The notes under the pieces: generated by a model
Database searches by the model: none
Told to the model about the DNA's origin: nothing
What the model saw: the letters and a program-made list of their open reading frames with translations, nothing else
Shown here: piece after piece, positions 9,289 to 29,791 of the stretch
Numbering within the stretch: position 1 is the stretch's first letter
Layout of the letters: every line of letters starts with the position of its first letter
Origin: Planctomycetota bacterium
GTDB taxonomy: Bacteria > Planctomycetota > Planctomycetia > JALXBF01
DNA: 33,605 bases
Reading direction: 5' to 3'
NCBI GenBank assembly: GCA_026991575.1
Contig: JALXBF010000184.1
Coordinates: forward strand, 1-33,605
Translations under genes and position numbers: made by a program

Positions 9289-10116
9289 TTAGGGGGACGA
9301 AAACGGCGCGAATGTCCGGGCCATCGTGACCAGTGCCGTGACGATCAGAAACCAGCCAAAGAACCGCTGGAGCGATCGGGTGCTGAGCCGGTGTGACAGG
9401 CGGCTGCCCATCTGCGCGCCGCAGAACACGGCAACGGCCGCCCACACCAGGTGCATGCCCCATCGCAAGTGGCCCACCGAGATATGGCCCACCAGCCCAG
9501 ACATTGCCGTCATGCCGACCATCAACGCGCTTGATCCAACGGCAATCCGCATGGGCACGCGAAACAGTAGCACCATGGCCGGCAGCTTCAGGATGCCGCC
9601 ACCCAACCCCACCATGCTGGTCGCGAAACCGATCGCGAACATGATCGGCGTAGTGACCAGCAGATTCAGGCAGTAGGTTTCGTCGGCACGACGCCGCACC
9701 CAGTGCCACGGCCTGCCGACGGCATCTGGCGCCGGCGCCGGCCTGGCCGGCCGCAGCTCCAGCCGGCTCATCGTCAGCCCAGCCACGACCAGAAGCCCGC
9801 ACAAGACCAGGACCAGCGCGATACCCGGCAGTACCCGTGCCACAAACGCCGCCCCCAGAGCCCCCACCAACGTCGGCGCTTCCAGGACGGCGCACATCGC
9901 CCAGTCGGTGTGCTGGGCACGATGAAAGACCAGCGTCGCCGACAGCGACGTGACCACGATAAGCAGCAGGCTGGTCGCAGCAGCGACGTGCGGGTCAATG
10001 CCCAGCCAGAGCTGGACAGGCGTGTACAGCGAACCCCCGCCCTGTCCAAAAACCGATGCCACCGCAGCAGCAAAAAACAGGGCGACGGGCAGAAGCAACG
10101 TCACCATCGAGTCCAT
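9289..10116 (-). CDS. Sulfite exporter TauE/SafE family protein
   Basis: Two repeats GQGGGSLYTP and GLGGGILKLP, AAATSL / AVGSS, and C-terminal GSRLSHRLS..LQRFF; hydrophobic throughout. Start (10116 or 10107) inferred. Confidence 0.9.
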   Translation of the reverse strand: MDSMVTLLLPVALFFAAAVASVFGQGGGSLYTPVQLWLGIDPHVAAATSLLLIVVTSLSATLVFHRAQHTDWAMCAVLEAPTLVGALGAAFVARVLPGIALVLVLCGLLVVAGLTMSRLELRPARPAPAPDAVGRPWHWVRRRADETYCLNLLVTTPIMFAIGFATSMVGLGGGILKLPAMVLLFRVPMRIAVGSSALMVGMTAMSGLVGHISVGHLRWGMHLVWAAVAVFCGAQMGSRLSHRLSTRSLQRFFGWFLIVTALVTMARTFAPFSSP

Positions 10117-10964
10117 CTCGACCGTACCGAACACGCAGCGAAGAGGATCACTTAGTGTACGGATCCCGGCCAGAAAGGACACGAACCCGCTGACAAGCGC
10201 ACGGTTCGCCGACAAGTTACCCTCTGCAGAGCTACCCCCTGCCGTCTCCCGAAGAACCCTTCAGCGAACCGCCCGTGCCGGCGGTTCCCTATTCCCAGAC
10301 GCTGACCGGCAACGGTGTGCGCGCAGTACGGAAAACACCTGCTCTGCCGTATCGCGCTGGCGGCAATCGCTGCCGTGGAACCCAGGTTAGCTCCTCGATG
10401 ACCCGTGGCTCGTACACTCACAGACCGAAATCCAGATCCACACCCCACGGGCAATCTCTTCGCCCACGGTTGGGATGCATGGCGTGCTGTCCTCAGGAAC
10501 CTCGTCGCGGCACTTGAAGACAACGACCCGGAGCTCCTCACTACGACAGCGACACGTAGTGCCTGTGCCCGAACCGTCCTGCACCACCGGGCGCGACAAC
10601 CGCTGTTCGACGCTGGCCTTGGCCATGACGCCTCCTCCGCTCCCGCACGGAGCGCTGACTGGCAAAAAAGCTGTCCCCAGTCTAGCACGTTTCCACGCCG
10701 GTTTCCAGGCGGTGTACGCGTGATTGTGAGGCGATTGCGATGTCCGCAAGCTGTTGACTGATCGGGTCTGTGCGTCGATTCCGAGGAGGCTTTCCCCGCA
10801 GAAGCGCTGTCTCAGTGGCGTTCTGAGCCCATGTCTGCGGGGCCGGAACAAGAAGTTCGAATTCTCGACCAAGGAGGGCTTGCAGCGGAGATAGATTGCG
10901 GTGCAGACGATCTTGGAGGGGCCTCCCTCGCCTTGAGAAAGCCGCTGACATCCGGAGAGGCGCA

Positions 10965-11330
10965 ATGGCCTGGAGCATGACGCGTCGGCTGTTTGCCCGG
11001 GCGACGTTGGAGGATAGTCCCACGATCCCAAGGATCCGCAAGCTTCTGGAAGGCAACTCCGACGAGCGGTTGCTGGCATCGTTAGCGAAAGGTCGTGGTT
11101 GTGGCCGAAATGATGTGCCCGTGCGGGTGACGTAGCGGATCCTGGTTCTGACTGCGGCATTGCGACACCAAAGCATTGAACGGTGCCTGCGGGAGTTGCG
11201 GCGGAACGAGTCACTGGGGAAAGTGGTGGGTATTGAGTCGGAAGAGGCAGTGCCACGGAAGTGGAACCTGTCGCGGCTATTAGAGCGGCTGGGCCAGGAG
11301 CCGTACCTGGATGAGTTGGTGCTGGTGTAG
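10965..11330 (+). pseudogene. Truncated transposase N-terminal fragment (InsH_N/DUF772-like, IS5/IS1182-type)
   Basis: After RBS GGAGAGG the frame reads MAWSMTRRLFARATLEDSPT..LLASLAKGRGCGRNDVPVRVT*RILVLTAALRHQSIERCLRELRRNESLGKVVGIESEEAVPRKWNLSRLLERLGQEP. It has the GR.D.P and VP..W..SR pattern of these domains, an internal TAG at 11133-11135, a stop at 11328-11330 and no DDE domain. Confidence 0.75.
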
Positions 11331-11354
11331 GGGGTGGCGACTCGGTCCGGCCCC

Positions 11355-12173
11355 GTGCCCGATGGCTTGTGGGCAGGCGGCGATCGAGGTTGCACTGGCC
11401 TGTTGCGGCGTCGCCGGGGGAGCAGAGAGGCCGTAGCGTGTGGCGGGCCGACGGGGAGCACGGGGGCCATGCTCGGCGCAAGAGATCGCGAGTGGTCTCC
11501 CCTCGCTGGGGAAGCAGGGGCTCACGGGCTGTGTTTGCCAAGCGGATGGGGTGGCAGATTCACCCTGCGGGAGCGCGCGGCGGTCGCGTTCCGAGGGACC
11601 GTCGTAGGGTGGGCGCCGTGGCCCTGTGCACTCGCCCGCACGCCGGGGGGGCGAATCCATCTGCGAGATGGAGCACGGGACAACTCCCACCCGAAACCCT
11701 GCCGAGGGGGATTGCCGCATGAACCTGTCAGCTTGCTTCGACGGGCGGGAGGGGGGCTTTGTGCCCCCCTCCCGCTCTGTTGATGGGTAGCGCGGGCCGT
11801 ACGAGCTTTGTTTTTTTCCGCCCCATGAAAGATCCCCCGACGCCGCGGACGCTGTGCGCGGCGTCGGCGAGGTGGCTGTGCGCTGCCGCCGGGCCGACAG
11901 CGAAATGTCTTTGCGCACACCGCCCGCCCGAGGAAAGTCGACCAGCCGGGCCGCGGGCGGGTCGATCCCGCCCGCGGGTCGGGTGGTGGGATCTGCCGAG
12001 GGCGGTGGTGAGGTCCCACGCTGGTGTGGGTCGTTGAGCCTGGAGGCAGCCCACACGGAAGGTCAGCCGGTCCTTATCTAGTAAGACCGCCGACCGCAGA
12101 GCCGGATGCAGGAAGTCCGCGTGGCCGGTTCGGAAGGAGCCGACCTCGGGTAACCGGGGCTTGCTACCCCTGT
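11355..12173 (+). ncRNA. ORF-less group II intron-like structured RNA, possibly degenerate; 5' boundary approximate
   Basis: Domain V-like GAGCCGGATGCAGGAAGTCCGCGTGGCCGGTTC (12099-12131, AGC triad) followed by a domain VI-like hairpin ending GCTACCCCTGT (candidate branch A 12166). Several perfect GC hairpins lie upstream; no RT ORF or YADD motif. Confidence 0.7.
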
Positions 12174-12480
12174 GTGTCTGAAGTGGCTTGCTCGATCAGT
12201 TCGTTTCCCGCTTCGCCTGTCACCAGCGTCATGTGGGGTATACCCGGAGGGCACACGCGAGTCGATGAGGCGACCGGACGCCGGAGCCCCACCCCCTGCA
12301 CCCCTGGGTCGTACACGTGCTGGAACCCCCCTGCACGTAGTCACTGCGAGCACGGCTGTCGGCCTGAGGAGTTCCTGTTCCAGCGATACGCTGGGCGCCA
12401 GAACGCCGGTCAAGCAGTCGGGGACGACGATAGGCCAATCGCGCAGACAGAGAGCGGCGGGTATGACAGTGAGCACGGGG

Positions 12481-13824
12481 TCACGCCCCGAAGTACTCGC
12501 GCACCTGCTCAATCAGCGCGTGTGCCTGTTGCTCGTTGCGTGACTCGGCGATGACCCGCACAATCGGTTCCGTGTTGCTGCCCCGCACATGAAGCCACCA
12601 GTCGGCTGTTTCCAGCCGAAGGCCGTCGGAGCGGTTCACGGCTGCGTCCGGAAAGCGATCGGGCAGTTCATTGAGCACGCGGTCTAGGGCGCCGCGTTCA
12701 AGCGGAAATGCAGACTTGACCATCGACCACTGAGGCAGAGCACCGGCGAGTTCGGAAAGTTTCTTGCCGGAGGCTGCCAGAGCGTCCAGTACGAGCGCCA
12801 TGCCCGTGAAGCTGTCCCGAATCCATACCACGTCACCGTGGATGACGCCACCGTTACCTTCTCCCGCCAGCCTTGCACCAACCTGGAGCGCCATTTCAAC
12901 GACGTTAGCTTCACCCACGGGGGAGCGGTACACGGTGGCCCCGTGCCGTCGGGCTGCTTCCTCGACGACGCGGGATGTGGACAGGTTGATCACGAACGGT
13001 CCAGGGCTGCGGCTGAAGACGTGCTCGGCCACGATCGCCAACGTGTACTCTTCGCGGAGCACCGAGCCGCGCTCGTCGATGAGCACGAGCCGGTCCGCGT
13101 CGGGATCCTGGGCGAAGCCGACATCGATGTTCGCTTCCCGCGCCAGCGCCGCGGTTTCGGTAAGGTGTTCGGGAAGCGGCTCGGGAGGGTGACGGAAAGC
13201 GCCCGTAGGTTCTACACCTACCGGCACGACGTCGCATCCCAGCGCTTCCAAGAGACGTTGCCCGAGCGGGCCGCCGGCCCCGTGGTTGGCATCAAGCAGC
13301 ACGCGAAATCGCCGCCTTCGTATGGCGTCGATGTCCACCAACCGCAGCACCCGGTCGAGGTGCTGCTGGTATGGATCGTCGATCGTCGTTGCGCGGTGCA
13401 CGTGTTGCCAGCTGACCGGGGTGAGGCGGCCGTCGCGGAACAGACTGGCGATCTTCTCGCCTTCAATTGCCGGCAGCGCGCGGCCGGACGGGTGGAACAG
13501 CTTGATCCCGTTCCACGCGGGCGGGTTGTGGCTGGCGGTGACCAGCAGGCCGCCGGCGGCTCCCTGTGCCTGAATGAGCACGCCGCAGGTCGGTGTCGGG
13601 ATGCAGCCGGCCAACAGCGGTTTGCAGCCAGCCTCCAGCAGACCACTGATCGCCGCATGATACAGCATCTCGCCGTGCGATCGGCTGTCTCGGCCGACAA
13701 CGATCGGTTGGCCATGGCGTGTGCTGCCGTATGCAAGCGCATACCGGTGCGCGACGGCGGCGGTGAGGCTCTCGCCGACCACGCCGCGCAGGCCAGAGAC
13801 ACTGATGATCAGACTGTGCGACAT
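12481..13824 (-). CDS. glmM: Phosphoglucosamine mutase / phosphomannomutase
   Basis: SVSGLRG start, phosphoserine loop TASHNP, metal loop DPDADR, GEGNGG and VRGSNTEP. Exact substrate is inferred. Confidence 0.8.
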   Translation of the reverse strand: MSHSLIISVSGLRGVVGESLTAAVAHRYALAYGSTRHGQPIVVGRDSRSHGEMLYHAAISGLLEAGCKPLLAGCIPTPTCGVLIQAQGAAGGLLVTASHNPPAWNGIKLFHPSGRALPAIEGEKIASLFRDGRLTPVSWQHVHRATTIDDPYQQHLDRVLRLVDIDAIRRRRFRVLLDANHGAGGPLGQRLLEALGCDVVPVGVEPTGAFRHPPEPLPEHLTETAALAREANIDVGFAQDPDADRLVLIDERGSVLREEYTLAIVAEHVFSRSPGPFVINLSTSRVVEEAARRHGATVYRSPVGEANVVEMALQVGARLAGEGNGGVIHGDVVWIRDSFTGMALVLDALAASGKKLSELAGALPQWSMVKSAFPLERGALDRVLNELPDRFPDAAVNRSDGLRLETADWWLHVRGSNTEPIVRVIAESRNEQQAHALIEQVREYFGA

Positions 13825-14006
13825 TCCGTTGGGCTCCCGCTGCGAATGATCACGTCAGGCATCCCCGAGCCCTACTGCACCTATGGTACCAGCGGTCAGC
13901 GGTTGCCCAGGTCAACGTCAGGTGCCCGGGGGGCCGGGGATATGATTCGGAAAGACCGGGAGCAGGCCGTTGTTTCCGCGTACTTCGATTCAGCAGGGGG
14001 ACGCCG

Positions 14007-15833
14007 ATGCAAGGTGAACAGGCGATTGATGCGGCACGTCAAGCTCTTGACGAAGCCGTTGCACGTGGAGAGTTAAGCACGGCGGCGCGCGAGCGGATCG
14101 AGCAGTGGCTGACCGATCCGGAGTACGTCCGGTACCGCGACGCTGTGCTTGAGCACATCGAACGAAAACAGTTCCGCCTGCTCGATGACCTGTTCTGGAC
14201 CGTGATGCCGTTCGGCACCGGCGGTCGGCGAGGTCGCATGTATCCAATCGGCACGAATGCGATGAACGACCGGACCGTGGGCGAGTCGGCTCAAGGACTC
14301 GCCGACTACTTGCGAGAAACCTACGGACGTGGTGCAACGCTCACCGCTGTCATCGCGCATGACACACGGCACAACTCACGTCAGTTTGCCGAGTACACTG
14401 CCGCCGTACTGGCGGCCAACGGCATCCGTGCCTTTCTCTTTCCTGAGCACCGTGCGACTCCTGAGCTATCCTTCGCCGTGCGCTACCTCGGGGCGAGCAC
14501 CGGAGTGGTGATCTCGGCATCGCACAATCCACCCTCTGACAACGGGTTCAAGTGCTACTGGAGGGGGGGCTCGCAGGTGGTGCCGCCGCATGACCGAGGG
14601 ATCCTAGAAAAGGTCGGTGCCGTCCGCGCGGTGCGCGACATGCCCCTGGAGGACGCCGCGGCGCGTGGACTGGTGGAGGTGTTGACCGAGCAAGTCGACC
14701 GCGCGTACGTGGATGCTGTGGTCGCCCAGGCGGTCTCCGACGCTCGCGACGTGCGGATTGCCTACAGCCCACTGCACGGTGTCGGCCTCACAAACGTGCT
14801 GCCCGTGCTGAAGAAAGCCGGCTTCTCGGATGTCCATTTGGTCGAGCGTCAATGCACGCCAGACGGGAACTTTCCTGCGGTTGCAAACAACATCCCGAAT
14901 CCCGAAGTGGACGCGGCGATGGCCGACGTGATAGCCCTGGCTCAGGAGGTCGATGCCGACATTGCGTTGGCCAGCGACCCGGATGCCGACCGGATCGGCG
15001 TCGCCGTGCGGGCGGAGAATGGCCAGTGGTGTCGACTGAGCGGTAACCAGGTTGCCGCGCTGCTGACGTGGCATGTGCTTGATTCGCTCGCGCACTCGGG
15101 CCGGGTGCACGACGGCTACGTTGTCAAGACCTACGTGACGACCGACATGATGGCCGCTATCGCGGACAGCTACCGCGTGCGGGTCGTGGGTGACCTGCCG
15201 GTAGGCTTCAAGTGGATTGCTCAGACGATCGACCGCGAGCCAGGCGAGTTTCTGTTTGCGGCCGAAGAGTCGCTGGGTTACTTGCGGGGCACGTATGCGC
15301 GGGACAAAGATGGGGCTGTAGGAGCGCTGCTGGTGGCCGAAGCGGCCGCCTGTGCCAAGCGGCGCGGGCTAAATCTGACCCAGGTGCTGGACGAACTGTA
15401 CATGCGTTACGGCTACTTCCACGAGGCGGCCGATAGCCGAACGCTGCCGGGGCGAGAGGGTGTCGCGAGAATGCAGGAGCTGATGGCTCGTTTCCGGTCC
15501 GACCCGCCCGAACGCCTCGGACCGTTCAGCGTACGGCGTTTGTGGGACTTCCGCGCGCACGAGGTGCGCGACCTGCAGAGCGGCGTGCGGCAGTCGGTGG
15601 AACGGCCGGATGCGGACATGGTTGCCCTGGAGCTGGACCGCCCCGGCTGGCGTGTTGTCGTCCGGCCGTCCGGCACCGAACCAAAGGTCAAGTTCTACTT
15701 CTTCGGCAACGTGTCGGCTGAGGAGGTGGCTGCCGCAGGCGGGCCCGCTCGGGCACGTCAGCGGTGTCGGGCTGAGATGGCCGAGCTGCAGACTGCCCTC
15801 GGGCGCTTCATCGACAGCGTCGTCGGCAGCTAA
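14007..15833 (+). CDS. Phospho-sugar mutase (phosphoglucomutase/phosphomannomutase, long PgcA-like type)
   Basis: Motifs FGTGGRRG, SASHNP, YSPLHGVG, DPDADR, GFKWI, EESLGY and RPSGTEPKVKFY. Confidence 0.93.
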   Translation: MQGEQAIDAARQALDEAVARGELSTAARERIEQWLTDPEYVRYRDAVLEHIERKQFRLLDDLFWTVMPFGTGGRRGRMYPIGTNAMNDRTVGESAQGLADYLRETYGRGATLTAVIAHDTRHNSRQFAEYTAAVLAANGIRAFLFPEHRATPELSFAVRYLGASTGVVISASHNPPSDNGFKCYWRGGSQVVPPHDRGILEKVGAVRAVRDMPLEDAAARGLVEVLTEQVDRAYVDAVVAQAVSDARDVRIAYSPLHGVGLTNVLPVLKKAGFSDVHLVERQCTPDGNFPAVANNIPNPEVDAAMADVIALAQEVDADIALASDPDADRIGVAVRAENGQWCRLSGNQVAALLTWHVLDSLAHSGRVHDGYVVKTYVTTDMMAAIADSYRVRVVGDLPVGFKWIAQTIDREPGEFLFAAEESLGYLRGTYARDKDGAVGALLVAEAAACAKRRGLNLTQVLDELYMRYGYFHEAADSRTLPGREGVARMQELMARFRSDPPERLGPFSVRRLWDFRAHEVRDLQSGVRQSVERPDADMVALELDRPGWRVVVRPSGTEPKVKFYFFGNVSAEEVAAAGGPARARQRCRAEMAELQTALGRFIDSVVGS

Positions 15834-26053: not shown

Positions 26054-26178
26054 ATCGGCCTGCCGCCAAACGCTTCTGCCGCGGCGGCCGCTGCCGGGCG
26101 CGGCAGAAGCACGCAGTGTCCGTCAGACCCGCTGCCGGCGCATCGGTGCTCGATGGCGCAGCGAAGGGCTTTGAGCCG

Positions 26179-28158
26179 ATGTCAGGCGAACAGCGAAGGT
26201 ATTACATCCTGGGCACGGCCGGCCACATTGATCATGGCAAGACCAGCCTCGTGCGCGCGATGACCGGCATCGACACGGACCGGCTGCCCGAGGAGAAGAA
26301 ACGCGGCATCACGATCGACATCGGCTTCGCGCGGCTGGACTTGGGCGATGTGCGGCTCGGTGTCGTGGATGTGCCCGGCCATGAGCGCTTCATCAAGAAC
26401 ATGGTGGCAGGAGCCAGCGGCGTGGACCTGGTGCTGCTGGTCGTTGCCGCCGACGATTCCGTCATGCCCCAAACGCGCGAGCACCTCGAGATCCTGCAGC
26501 TGCTTGGTGTGCGCCACGGTGCCATCGCCCTGACGAAGATCGACCTTGTCGACCGCGACTGGCTCGAGCTCGTCGAGGAAGACGTGCGCAGCCTGGTGGA
26601 AGGTACCTTCCTGGCGGACGCTCCCATCGTGCGCACCTCGGCAGAGACCGGAGAGGGAATCGAGCAACTGAAGGAAACGCTCCGAGCGGTCTGCCACCGC
26701 GTCAGTCGAGAGCGTCGTGACGAGTTCTTCCGCATGGCCGTGGACCGGTCGTTTGCGGTGCAGGGCTACGGCACGGTGGTGACCGGGTCGGTCTGGTCAG
26801 GAGTGCTCCGCGTGGGCGAAGAGGTTGAGTGGCTACCGGCCCAGAAGCGACTGCGCGTACGGAGCCTGCAGAACCACGAGGAGCCGGTGGAGGTGGTGCG
26901 CCGCGGTCAGCGCGCAGCCGTGAACCTGGGCGGTGTGCATCACACCGAGATCCAGCGCGGCCACGAGATCGCAACGCCCGGTCTGCTGCGGCCGTCTCAC
27001 CTGATCAGCGTCGAACTGCGCGTTCTCCGCTCCAGTCCGCTGCCGGTGAAACATCGCCGCCGTGTGCGGTTGCACGTGGGCACGGCAGAGACCATAGCGG
27101 TCGTTTCGCTGCTGGATGCGAACGAATTGCGTCCGGGCGAGGTCGGATTGGCTCAGCTTTTCACCAGCGACCCGGTCGCCGTCAGTTGGGGTCAACCGTT
27201 CGTGGTGCGGGCCGAGAGTCCGCTGGTGACGCTGGGCGGTGGCCGGATCCTGCAGCCGGTGGCCAGGCGAATCAGCCGGAGGCACACGGAGCGGCTCGAG
27301 CGGCTCGAAATGCTACGCAGCGCGGACGTGACCGAGCGGGCTGATGCCGCACTGTGGTTCTACCGGTTCGATCCGTGGACGCCGCTGGATCTGGCGCGCG
27401 ACACGGGTGCGAGTCGATCGGAACTGGACAGTGTGCTCGGCGAGCTGCGCGGTCGAGGCATTCTGCAGGAGCTTCCGCTCCGCCAGCGTAGGACCGTGCT
27501 CGTTCACCGCGACGTGCTCGCTGCCCTGCAACAGCGCCTGCTGCGGGCGGTGGAGGAACTGCATCGTTCGGCGCCGCTGCGGCTCTACCACCCGGCTCAC
27601 CAGGTGCTCAGCCTCGTGCAGGGAGTGGCAGAGGAAGCGGTGCTTCAGGCACTGTTGGAGCGGCTGCTGAAGCAGGGGGAACTCGTCGGCTCGCCGTCCG
27701 CTCTGGCTCGCCGCGGCCACACGCCGAAACTGACCCAGGCCGAGACAAGACTGAAGGAAAGCTTGGTCCAGGAGATCACCGCCAACCGGTTTACACCCCC
27801 TGATCTTGGCGCGCTGGTACGCGCCAGCGGGGCAAAGGAGGAAACGGTGCGCCAGCTTCTGGAGTTGGCCGCAGCCGAGGGGGCGCTGGTGGCGGTCTCC
27901 GAGACGATCTACCTGGCTAGCACCGTGGCCGAGCAGCTGCGCGCCGCGGTCCGCGAAGCACTGGAACGGAAACCTGAAGGCATGACGGTCGCCGAAATCC
28001 GCGACCTGTTGGGAGTCAGCCGCAAGTACGCCGTGCCTTACTGCGAATACCTGGATCGTATCGGACTGACGGAGCGGCGTGGCGATCTCCGTGTGCTCGC
28101 GTCGCCGACAGCAGCCGGGGCAGCCAGCGCAGAAGGGGCTTCGGAGTCGAGCGGCTGA
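26179..28158 (+). CDS. selB: Selenocysteine-specific elongation factor
   Basis: [40 protein letters not shown] and C-terminal winged helix [25 protein letters not shown]. Start at ATG 26179 inferred. Confidence 0.97.
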
Positions 28159-29573
28159 TGGACAAACAGGACCAAATCCAACAACTGCTGCGGGCCCTGC
28201 CTTCGGTCGACCGACTGTTGGAGCATCCGAAGGTCCGAGCTCTGCAGGGGGAGCTGGCCCGAGGACTGTTGGTCCGGGCAGTACGGCGCGCGCTGGATCA
28301 GGCTCGCTCTTTGCTACGCGGCGGCGGCGGGGCCTCTGGCGCGGATATCGATGCGCTGCTAGAACGGCTCCTGGATCTGGAGCTTGCTGCCGCGACGCGT
28401 CATCGCCTACGTCCCGTCATCAACGCCACCGGTATCCTACTGCACACCGGTCTGGGCCGCGCTCCACTGGCCGAGAGCGTCGCACGCCACGTCTACGAAG
28501 CAGCCCACAACTACGTCTGCCTGGAGATTGACCTCGACAGCGGCCGCCGCGGCAAGCGTACGGCTCTGGTGCGCGATCTCCTCTGTGAGCTGACCGGGGC
28601 CGAAGCCGCGACGGTGGTGAACAACAACGCAGCGGCGACGGTGATCGTCCTCGCTGCCCTGGCAGCCAACAGGGAGGTCGTCGTCTCGCGCGGGGAGTTG
28701 ATTGAAATCGGCGGCAGCTTCCGGCTACCAGAAATCATGGCCGTCTCTGGCGCCGTGCTTCGCGAGGTCGGTACCACCAATAAGACCCGGCTCGCCGATT
28801 ACGAACGGGCCATCGGCGAACGGACCGCAGCACTGATGAAGGTGCACACGTCCAACTACCGCGTGGTCGGGTTTAGCGAAGCGGTGCCGATCGAGGAGCT
28901 GGTCCGGCTCGGCCGGCGATACGGTCTGCCCGTGATCGACGACATCGGCTCCGGCGCGCTGGTGGACCTGGCTGCCATTGGCCTGGCAGGTGAGCCGGTG
29001 GCGGGACGGTCAGTGAGGGCGGGGGCTGACGTGGTGCTGTTCAGTGGTGACAAGCTCCTGGGGGGGCCTCAGGCGGGCATCATCGTCGGTCGCGCGGCGG
29101 TGATCGAACAGATCGAGCGGCACCCACTAGCGCGCGCGTTCCGCGTCGATAAGCTGACACTCGCTGCGCTGGAGGCCACGCTTCGGCTGTACCTGGACCC
29201 GGACACGGCCTGGCAGCAGGTGCCGGTGCTTGCCATGGCCGCCGCGCCGGAGGCGGTGGTGCGGGCCCGCGCCGAACGGCTCCGAACACAACTGGCCGAG
29301 CTGCCCGGGGTAAACGAGCTACTGATGCGACCAGACCAGGCTTATGTTGGTGGCGGTTCGCTGCCGATGCAGGCGATCAAGACCTGGGTTGTGGGCGTGC
29401 GGTCGACCGGACTCAGCGAGCAAGAGCTGGCCCGCCGCCTACGCACCGGCGACCCGGCGGTTGTGCCGCGTGTGCAAGATGGCCTGGTGCTGTTCGATGC
29501 CCGTACGGTGCGTGACGATCAGGTAGCGTCGGTTGTCCGGGCCGTGGCGGCGGCGCTGGCATCGGACGGTTAA
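28158..29573 (+). CDS. selA: L-seryl-tRNA(Sec) selenium transferase
   Basis: VINATGILLHTGLGRAPL, VNNNAAA, SRGELIEIGGSFRLP, EVGTTNKT and PLP motif FSGDKLLGGPQAG; start overlaps the selB stop (TGATG). Confidence 0.98.
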   Translation: MDKQDQIQQLLRALPSVDRLLEHPKVRALQGELARGLLVRAVRRALDQARSLLRGGGGASGADIDALLERLLDLELAAATRHRLRPVINATGILLHTGLGRAPLAESVARHVYEAAHNYVCLEIDLDSGRRGKRTALVRDLLCELTGAEAATVVNNNAAATVIVLAALAANREVVVSRGELIEIGGSFRLPEIMAVSGAVLREVGTTNKTRLADYERAIGERTAALMKVHTSNYRVVGFSEAVPIEELVRLGRRYGLPVIDDIGSGALVDLAAIGLAGEPVAGRSVRAGADVVLFSGDKLLGGPQAGIIVGRAAVIEQIERHPLARAFRVDKLTLAALEATLRLYLDPDTAWQQVPVLAMAAAPEAVVRARAERLRTQLAELPGVNELLMRPDQAYVGGGSLPMQAIKTWVVGVRSTGLSEQELARRLRTGDPAVVPRVQDGLVLFDARTVRDDQVASVVRAVAAALASDG

Positions 29574-29694
29574 CCGGCCTTTGGGCGGAGTGCCCGGCAT
29601 ATGGCGTTCGCGGTGCCTAACAGGTCGGTCTTCGCGGCCGGTGGGCCGAGCCGGCGGTGGACCACCGATAGAATCAATGAGTTGGCGGCGTATC

Positions 29695-29791
29695 GGGAGT
29701 GTCTGCACGCCTGGTGGCGGCCCCGGGCTTCAAACCCGGTGCGAGGTCTGGCGAGCAGGCCTCGGGTGGGTTCGATTCCCATACACTCCCG
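29695..29791 (+). tRNA. selC: tRNA-Sec (anticodon TCA)
   Basis: 8-bp acceptor GGGAGTGT/ACACTCCC, TGGT D-loop, anticodon loop CTTCAAA (TCA at 29730-29732), long variable arm CGAGGTCTG/CAGGCCTCG, T arm GTGGG-TTCGATT-CCCAT; 97 nt, CCA not encoded. Confidence 0.97.

Follow-up and report, generated by a model that had tools for sequence, protein, structure and literature searches.

In a 33,605-nt contig of a Planctomycetota bacterium (JALXBF010000184.1; this whole stretch is called the window here), positions 11355-12173 drew attention as a possible ORF-less group II intron with intact peripheral helices and a divergent catalytic domain V. We find that these roughly 820 nt are instead a dead composite, in which part of a disrupted transposase gene and several hairpin repeats are followed by the worn tail of a group II intron. 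With a probability that we put at about 80%, the wider segment 10724-12230 is a dead copy of an intron-derived family of mini-elements, lacking its 5' end and fused to the relic of an insertion sequence (IS). This reading is built on homologies, recurrent junctions, copy numbers and decay that are observed directly in the genome, and on a mobility mechanism that we propose from them.

Results

A mosaic of repeats in an intergenic region

Repeated DNA extends in the window from 10724 to 12225. Its copy number changes stepwise along the sequence, and we used these steps to set the borders of the modules listed below, in which A2 in full is 11331-11694. Other contigs of the assembly are denoted by C and a number.

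10724-11330 (+): A1, 5' part of an IS of the DUF772 plus DDE_Tnp_1 type; transposase gene broken, DDE domain absent
11331-11494 (+): A2a, decayed transposase gene continued, then the junction with the next repeat; 10 copies of A2 aligned
11495-11694 (+): A2b, repeat module adjoining B in 10 strong copies; contains a 7-bp hairpin, 11656-11672
11695-11775 (+): B, left arm plus hairpin H1 (11745-11775, 13 bp)
11774/11775 (+): putative intron insertion site, unoccupied, ...CCCG followed by CTCTGTTGATGG...
11776-11944 (+): U, the 46-nt mini-element spacer in enlarged form, with hairpin H2 (11837-11867); equals the 3' exon of young intron copies
11945-12006 (+): D, palindromic module with hairpin H3 (11951-11977)
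12007-12096 (+): E, first part, what is left of the last stretch of the IEP reading frame and of domain IV on its 3' side; stem 12024-12030/12050-12056
12097-12173 (+): E, second part, group II intron domains V and VI, decayed
12174-12230 (+): F, short repeat 3' of the intron end in the window and in C65; 7 matches

The stretch first singled out thus consists of repeats (the transposase 5' part, A2b, B, U and D, and the last 167 nt of the intron) that are restricted to their own genome among the genomes searched. Window positions 11340-12480 have 98 matches in this genome (4.96 Mb in 191 contigs). When matches over at least 60% of a module are counted, there are 9 for A1, 7 for A2, 44 for B, 19 for U, 34 for D, 12 for E and 7 for F, figures that include the window copy and in which palindromes are partly counted on both strands. 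The join of the intron end to F is seen in C65 as well, where C65:100769-100879 corresponds by blastn to window 12111-12225. Genome-wide, the modules and intron pieces group into 72 islands, many of them at contig ends.

The mosaic lies between a TauE/SafE gene (9289-10215, -) and a gene for a PGM/PMM-type mutase (12481-13824, -). This mutase gene, which encodes 447 aa, is adjacent to and divergent from a second one of the same family (14007-15833, +; 608 aa). Elsewhere in the window, positions 26116-29790 hold selB (680 aa; GTP_EFTU and SelB domains), selA (471 aa) and tRNA-Sec (29695-29790, 73.3 bits) in a row, which makes a complete selenocysteine-insertion cluster.

The 3' end descends from a group II intron

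The preliminary description noted a domain V-like 33-mer at 12099-12131, followed by a hairpin resembling domain VI. The Rfam model RF00029 (Intron_gpII) does match 12097-12173 (+) over its full length (model positions 1-77), but with 21.3 bits, below the gathering score of 40; its E-value is 0.018 in a 141-nt search of 12060-12200 alone. Rfam at gathering thresholds finds tRNA-Sec and one tRNA alone in the whole window and no intron family, and at E ≤ 10 over 1.9 kb it again finds no intron family, with two chance-level matches that both fall on the 13-bp hairpin. The D1D4 models give no match in the same 1.9 kb at E ≤ 10 and, across seven loci of the family, nothing in the mini-elements described below. 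Because the same models reach just 24.3 bits on the intact intron of contig C19, they are uninformative in this lineage.

Comparison within the genome is decisive. By blastn, window 12027-12171 is 76% identical to C19:15572-15712 (E 2e-20), and window 12010-12171 is 81% identical to C177:86-248 (E 4e-36). Both are 3' ends of introns of the same genome that pass RF00029, and the group II descent of the 3' end of the flagged stretch is thereby confirmed. The individual features also hold up. Domain V keeps its AGC triad, and its deviations are as first described: the bulge reads GT for AC, two pairs are mismatched (11 of 13 pairs are kept relative to C19) and the element ends in GT. The same GT end is found in C48, a copy 95% identical to the intact intron. 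The domain V loop reads GAAGT in the window instead of GAGAA. The hairpin with a GTAA loop and A 12166 aligns to the branch-point region of RF00029, and upstream, the 7-bp stem 12024-12030/12050-12056 is present as GTGTGGG/CCCACAC in the window and as CATGGG/CCCATG in C19, so that pairing survives changes on both sides.

Domain V is normally the best conserved part of a group II intron. In the window, 24 of its 33 bases (73%) are identical to those of C19, against 76% across module E, and since domain V is thus no better preserved than the module around it, we conclude that it has drifted freely. The suggestion that a selected scaffold had been kept while the catalytic core changed finds no support in this comparison, in which the core and the whole module diverge at the same rate. 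Domain V has two broken pairs and has lost the AC bulge, the intron 5' end is absent, and the copy is most likely dead, as had been considered.

One intact parent and many derivatives

We looked for further copies and for a parent intron encoding a reverse transcriptase (RT), and found both. In a genome scan with RF00029 that scored 150 of 347 candidates, at least four places pass: C48:6026-6102 (54.6 bits), C19:15642-15714 (47.2), C177:174-250 (43.1) and C93:3616-3692 (41.7). All four are copies of module E by blastn. The genome contains 21 copies of domains V-VI, most of them decayed. The window element is a relic, as one of the outcomes initially envisaged would have it, but not a single-copy one.

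The parent lies on contig C19. Positions 13745-15714 form a complete 1970-nt intron, the only intact copy of the family, which starts with GTGCGCG and ends with canonical domains V and VI. Its reading frame encodes a 464-aa RT/maturase with RVT_1 and GIIM domains and no HNH domain, which by arithmetic leaves about 730 nt for the non-coding part. Pfam searches detected no intron-encoded RT/maturase within the window. Among solved structures, in a set that spans classes other than D, E and F, the C19 protein best matches two IIC RTs (6ar1, 233.9 bits; 7uim, 211.3), ahead of 6me0 (156.5) and LtrA (134.4). We infer from the protein and from insertion behind hairpins that the parent intron is probably class C-like, a term used in place of class C because its hairpins have no T tails. 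Another young copy, C48:5450-6102, is an ORF-less deletion derivative of the C19 intron, 95% identical to it over 540 nt.

Three observations concern other retroelement sequences in the assembly. A second RT-like frame at C96:33459-34658 shares 30% identity with the C19 IEP across some 400 aa, with no GIIM match reported, and may belong to another retroelement or intron family. The ORF-less intron copies at C173:27635-28433, C143:44448-44987 and C157:11845-12391 are nearly identical to one another, and in all three domain V contains a C/A mismatch and a GC bulge; they were duplicated recently despite this damaged core. At C146:13040-13335 (-), the intron's first 108 nt are represented by their 3' end, which faces its own reverse complement across a 5-nt loop, beside an inverted B. 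This inverted duplication resembles what snap-back synthesis or template switching would produce.

The left third is an IS relic and an unrelated repeat

The 5' portion of the mosaic has a different source. By tblastn, A1 aligns with 75% identity to two segments, aa 12-46 and 56-198, of the 537-aa transposase encoded on C16. It is interrupted by an in-frame TAG at 11133-11135, and the match stops at aa 198 of 537. Pfam detects DUF772 in the window fragment and DUF772 plus DDE_Tnp_1 in the full copy, in which the DDE domain occupies aa 265-493. In the sister copies on C117 and C153 the transposase match extends to aa 253-256, about 115-125 nt into A2. The whole A1-A2-B arrangement is common to C117, C118, C153 and C154, with 77-82% identity. 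The C16 gene itself (C16:72821-74431) is the sole full-length DUF772 plus DDE_Tnp_1 transposase; at least eight other copies keep its first 600 nt, five of them with the A2-B continuation.

An nhmmer profile of A2b finds 10 strong genomic copies and one weak one, and the module stands without the IS part on C63, on C117 (in a second copy) and on C19. We also considered A2 as diverged intron domains I-III and rejected this: its Smith-Waterman score of 22 equals the shuffle mean (22.3), and the A2b profile finds no intron body.

These findings do not fit a single ORF-less intron of 820 nt. The window contains none of the I5, Im1 and Im2 modules, that is, no GTGCG start or first 108 nt and no domains I-III, and the left third is an IS relic followed by A2b. 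The absence of a credible ORF was noted correctly, in that ORFs across the stretch have no Pfam matches and the reading frames are unlike among sister copies.

The helices are palindromic repeat units

All the perfect stems that had suggested a structured RNA are present in the sequence. They are the 13-bp stem 11745-11757/11763-11775 (H1), the 11-bp stem 11837-11847/11857-11867 (H2), which can be extended to 14 nt at 93%, the 11-bp stem 11951-11961/11967-11977 (H3) and a hairpin of 7 bp with a 3-nt loop at 11656-11672. The 819 nt fold with -459.7 kcal/mol, compared with -421.5 ± 7.4 kcal/mol for 20 shuffled sequences (z = -5.1), and none of the 20 shuffles is as good, so the structure of the stretch exceeds chance. 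The helices are real, but comparison with sister copies shows that the first 100 nt or so of the stretch (11355 to about 11450) derive from a decayed transposase gene and are not RNA scaffold. Nor are the helices the intact periphery of one intron; they are palindromic repeat units with 19 to 44 genomic copies, many of them outside introns.

Alignments of these copies, which are related so that their independence is overstated by the figures, show stems more conserved than the sequence around them. For H1 (38 non-overlapping copies), 444 of 494 cells are paired and column identity is 0.89 in the stem and 0.75 outside it. The corresponding values are 224 of 242, 0.95 and 0.77 for H2 (22 copies) and 464 of 496, 0.93 and 0.81 for H3 (31 copies). 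A few pairs change on both sides in H1 (3 of 13) and H3 (2 of 16), and none do in H2 (0 of 11). The conservation of the hairpins fits DNA targets or repeat units and singles out no one RNA architecture.

H1 is a putative homing hairpin

The positions of intron 5' ends suggest what such a target would be. Of 20 such ends, 12 have a hairpin with 8 bp or more that stops no further than 12 nt from the GTGCG start, and in six of these it ends exactly at the junction. The 5' junctions read ...CCCG/GTGCGCGT, and the hairpins there, together with the preceding 50 nt, are module B. A clear hairpin is missing at the other eight 5' ends. The two youngest copies are among these, with no hairpin at C48 and one that is smaller and of a different kind at C19. 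The 3' junctions of C48 and C19 continue with CTCTGTTGATGG, and the downstream sequence is that of the window from 11775 onward, or module U (C48:6103-6215 corresponds to window 11775-11883, and C19:15715-15844 to window 11775-11901). Because both junction halves are contiguous in the window, 11774/11775 reads as an unoccupied site. We conclude that H1 (11745-11775) is the predicted homing hairpin of the intron family, empty in the window, the site being pieced together from separate 5' and 3' junctions. No locus or contig preserves a B-U site with the 5' and the 3' flank of a single intron, which we attribute to contigs breaking at these repeats.

Two other kinds of target were considered and set aside. 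H1 in the window is followed directly by CTCTGTTGATGG, with no T run, and within 10200-12500 no terminator-like sites (and no promoter-like ones) are predicted, which speaks against an intrinsic terminator made of a stem and a T run. An attC site would call for an integron integrase, which is absent from the genome; the best match to TIGR02249 reaches 88 bits against a cut-off of 265, and the matches are Xer-like recombinases only.

Mini-elements share the B-U-D-E arrangement

Three short elements of 411-465 nt, C139:1078-1542, C167:330-752 and C149:1981-1571, begin with GTGCG-like letters next to a hairpin and extend to the intron 3' end. Each is made up of the first 108-110 nt of the intron, B, a 46-nt spacer, D and domains V-VI. 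The window aligns with all three from B through the intron end, and its U module is the mini-element spacer plus two insertions, one of which bears H2. The D-E junction of the window recurs in C139 (11945-12169 versus C139:1314-1540, 81%). Similarly, about 12 loci with unlike flanking sequence have the intron's first 108-110 nt joined to B in one and the same way, each with a GTGCG-like start and mostly behind a hairpin. This argues for a single origin of the composite, followed by its spread through insertions next to hairpins. In the window, A2b takes the place of the missing 108 nt.

The mini-elements are followed by the reverse complement of the B left arm, and insertion behind an H1 on the opposite strand would give this arrangement. 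In C86, C109 and C179, D is central in long inverted repeats of the form B-U-D-rc(spacer)-rc(B). The outer boundaries of the B-U-D repeat vary between copies and by eye bear no likeness to IS ends. Minimum free energy folds of the three mini-elements, which are decayed copies, have no recognisable six-domain layout, and every mini-element domain V looked at is damaged.

Two further origins were examined for these arrangements. A circularly permuted intron (compare PMC8637638) would place domains V-VI before domain I, and the module order in the islands does not follow this pattern. A weak tblastn match (E 0.007) that hinted at a decayed RT frame in U-D was absent when the search was repeated.

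The repeats look lineage-specific

Among the 30 relatives searched, A2, B, U and D have no match; the domain V/VI part is matched in two of these genomes, and a third has a single weak match inside U-D. With one genome per species, the 19-letter motif 3' of H1 gave 11 single matches in unrelated taxa, where about nine are expected by chance under uniform composition, and no multi-copy match. The repeats therefore look specific to this lineage. In titles and abstracts on group II introns in REP elements and in Planctomycetes, we found no description of such a system.

Discussion

A proposed history of the locus

Read from the left, the segment begins with the stop-interrupted, truncated 5' part of a DDE-type IS, passes through A2b and continues as B-U-D-E, collinear from B with the mini-elements. 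We propose that a group II intron, of which the sole intact, RT-encoding copy is the one on C19, gave rise to the mini-elements and to the longer ORF-less copies, and that this family inserts directly 3' of the GC-rich DNA hairpin H1. Since H1 is part of module B, new copies would insert into older ones, and islands would build up. Their spread would have occurred by retrohoming, with the C19 protein probably acting in trans. The window copy has lost the intron 5' end, its domain V has drifted neutrally and its H1 site reads as empty. Judged from its sequence, this copy most likely does nothing.

A more specific version of this history holds that the elements of 411-465 nt (C139, C149 and C167, with longer forms on C16 and C26 and in the window) were themselves retromobile mini group II introns that carry their own homing hairpin, the window being a decayed, 5'-less member. 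We regard this version as tentative and would not bet on it.

Alternative explanations

A possible but somewhat unlikely alternative is that module E, as an intron fragment truncated at its 5' end, has no common origin with the neighbouring B-U-D, which would be an independent repeat of REP or MITE type and just the target of the intron. Copies truncated at the 5' end are the expected product of incomplete reverse transcription in retrohoming, many copies of B, U and D are without an intron piece (for example C33:58412-58711, C27:53743-54042, C127 and C109), and D forms the centre of long inverted repeats. However, the recurrence of the D-E junction in C139 and of the junction between the first 108-110 nt of the intron and B at about 12 loci fits a composite that spread as a unit. 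The 97.8%-complete assembly also has no match to a RAYT-type transposase (Y1_Tnp, PF01797), and neither a terminal inverted repeat nor a target duplication is established. A different concern is the assembly itself, in which two or three islands of this metagenome-assembled genome could have been joined through shared hairpin sequence. The 191 contigs, the many islands at contig ends and the order of sister copies, which run B-spacer-D-rc(U) rather than B-U-D-E, are all compatible with such a chimera. Contigs of one DNA read set (X1) tile 10400-11792 and 11948-12800 exactly, but among those listed none spans 11793-11947 or about 11274-11291, so the module order is not independently bridged there. 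Against a chimera, X1 reads cover all 30 depth bins, with a depth of 31 in bin 11858-11938 compared with 34-38 in the single-copy flanks, and the copies differ by about 20%, so that they share few long words. We consider a chimera improbable.

The two readings closest to the preliminary description fare worse. That 11355-12173 is one complete, ORF-less, non-autonomous group II intron, still spliceable or mobile with a maturase in trans, would agree with the correct placement of its domain V/VI homology, with the availability of an IEP and with the existence of ORF-less derivatives such as C48. It is nevertheless very improbable given a left part that is transposase-derived and then the intron-unrelated A2b, the missing GTGCG start and first 108 nt, the missing Im1 and Im2, the lack of a D1D4 match, and a domain V with two broken pairs and no AC bulge. 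Even harder to credit is an intron-derived structured RNA with a new, non-catalytic function, whose scaffold is selected while the core is free to change. Stems that are better conserved than their surroundings (0.89-0.95 versus 0.75-0.81), the double changes in H1 (3 of 13) and H3 (2 of 16) and the fold z-score of -5.1 could be taken as signs of such selection, but a role as DNA targets explains the conservation of the hairpins equally well. Moreover, the hairpins belong to a DNA repeat that is scattered over the genome in either orientation and in varied surroundings, and they do not make up one RNA architecture. Their modules were not found in the 30 relatives searched, nor as multi-copy matches with one genome per species, and no promoter- or terminator-like site is predicted in 10200-12500. 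Weighing these alternatives, we favor a dead member of the mini-element family joined to an IS relic.

Comparison with known systems

Class C introns have a non-coding part smaller than the roughly 730 nt of the parent on C19. In several respects the parent resembles the IIC introns found after DNA stem-loops (B.h.I1, GsI-IIC, O.i.I1 and an E. rectale IIC intron): its IEP has RVT_1 and GIIM domains and no endonuclease domain, and its family inserts directly 3' of a GC-rich inverted repeat, as described for IIC introns in PMC1702495 and PMC4424553. Terminator motifs and attC sites are given as the insertion sites of class C introns (PMC4424553), to which PMC1702495 adds "or other inverted repeats". 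In contrast to those introns, the hairpins used by the parent family are not intrinsic terminators and belong to a genome-specific repeat, and the window copy is without domains I-IV and scores below the cut-off of the domain V/VI model.

ORF-less group II introns, of which Thermosynechococcus provides an example, are a parallel for the derivatives. In bacteria they are rare and depend on a related IEP in trans, as stated in PMC4424553. The genome studied here likewise combines one IEP copy (C19) with ORF-less derivatives (C48; C173, C143 and C157; the mini-elements), but most of these miss large parts of domains I-III, carry hairpin modules and are heavily decayed.

Fragmentary group II introns have been surveyed in bacterial genomes, and module E resembles them in keeping domains V and VI, in having lost the intron 5' end and in decaying neutrally. 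Unlike a one-off truncation, it is joined to repeats at a junction that recurs in C139, which marks it as a member of a derived family. The B, U and D modules, for their part, are reminiscent of REP and BIME mosaics, being short GC-rich palindromes with conserved stems, of which dozens are present in either orientation and combined into intergenic mosaics. They differ from these in that no RAYT (Y1 transposase) was found in the assembly, in the greater length of the units and in their physical linkage to the ends of group II introns.

Implications

For annotation, this locus is instructive in two ways. Perfect helices near a domain V look-alike may be mere dispersed palindromes, and a covariance-model score below threshold leaves descent undecided; here it was the genome's own intact copies that decided it. 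If the mini-elements moved as RNA, they would help to define the smallest bacterial group II RNAs that can be mobilised in trans. If they were retromobile, each insertion would have supplied a new landing pad, which would explain 72 nested islands in one planctomycete. The decay at the locus itself is nothing unusual. What the genome offers is a compact example of interplay, in which a group II intron that seeks hairpins, the ORF-less derivatives of this intron and a hairpin repeat specific to the lineage feed on each other.
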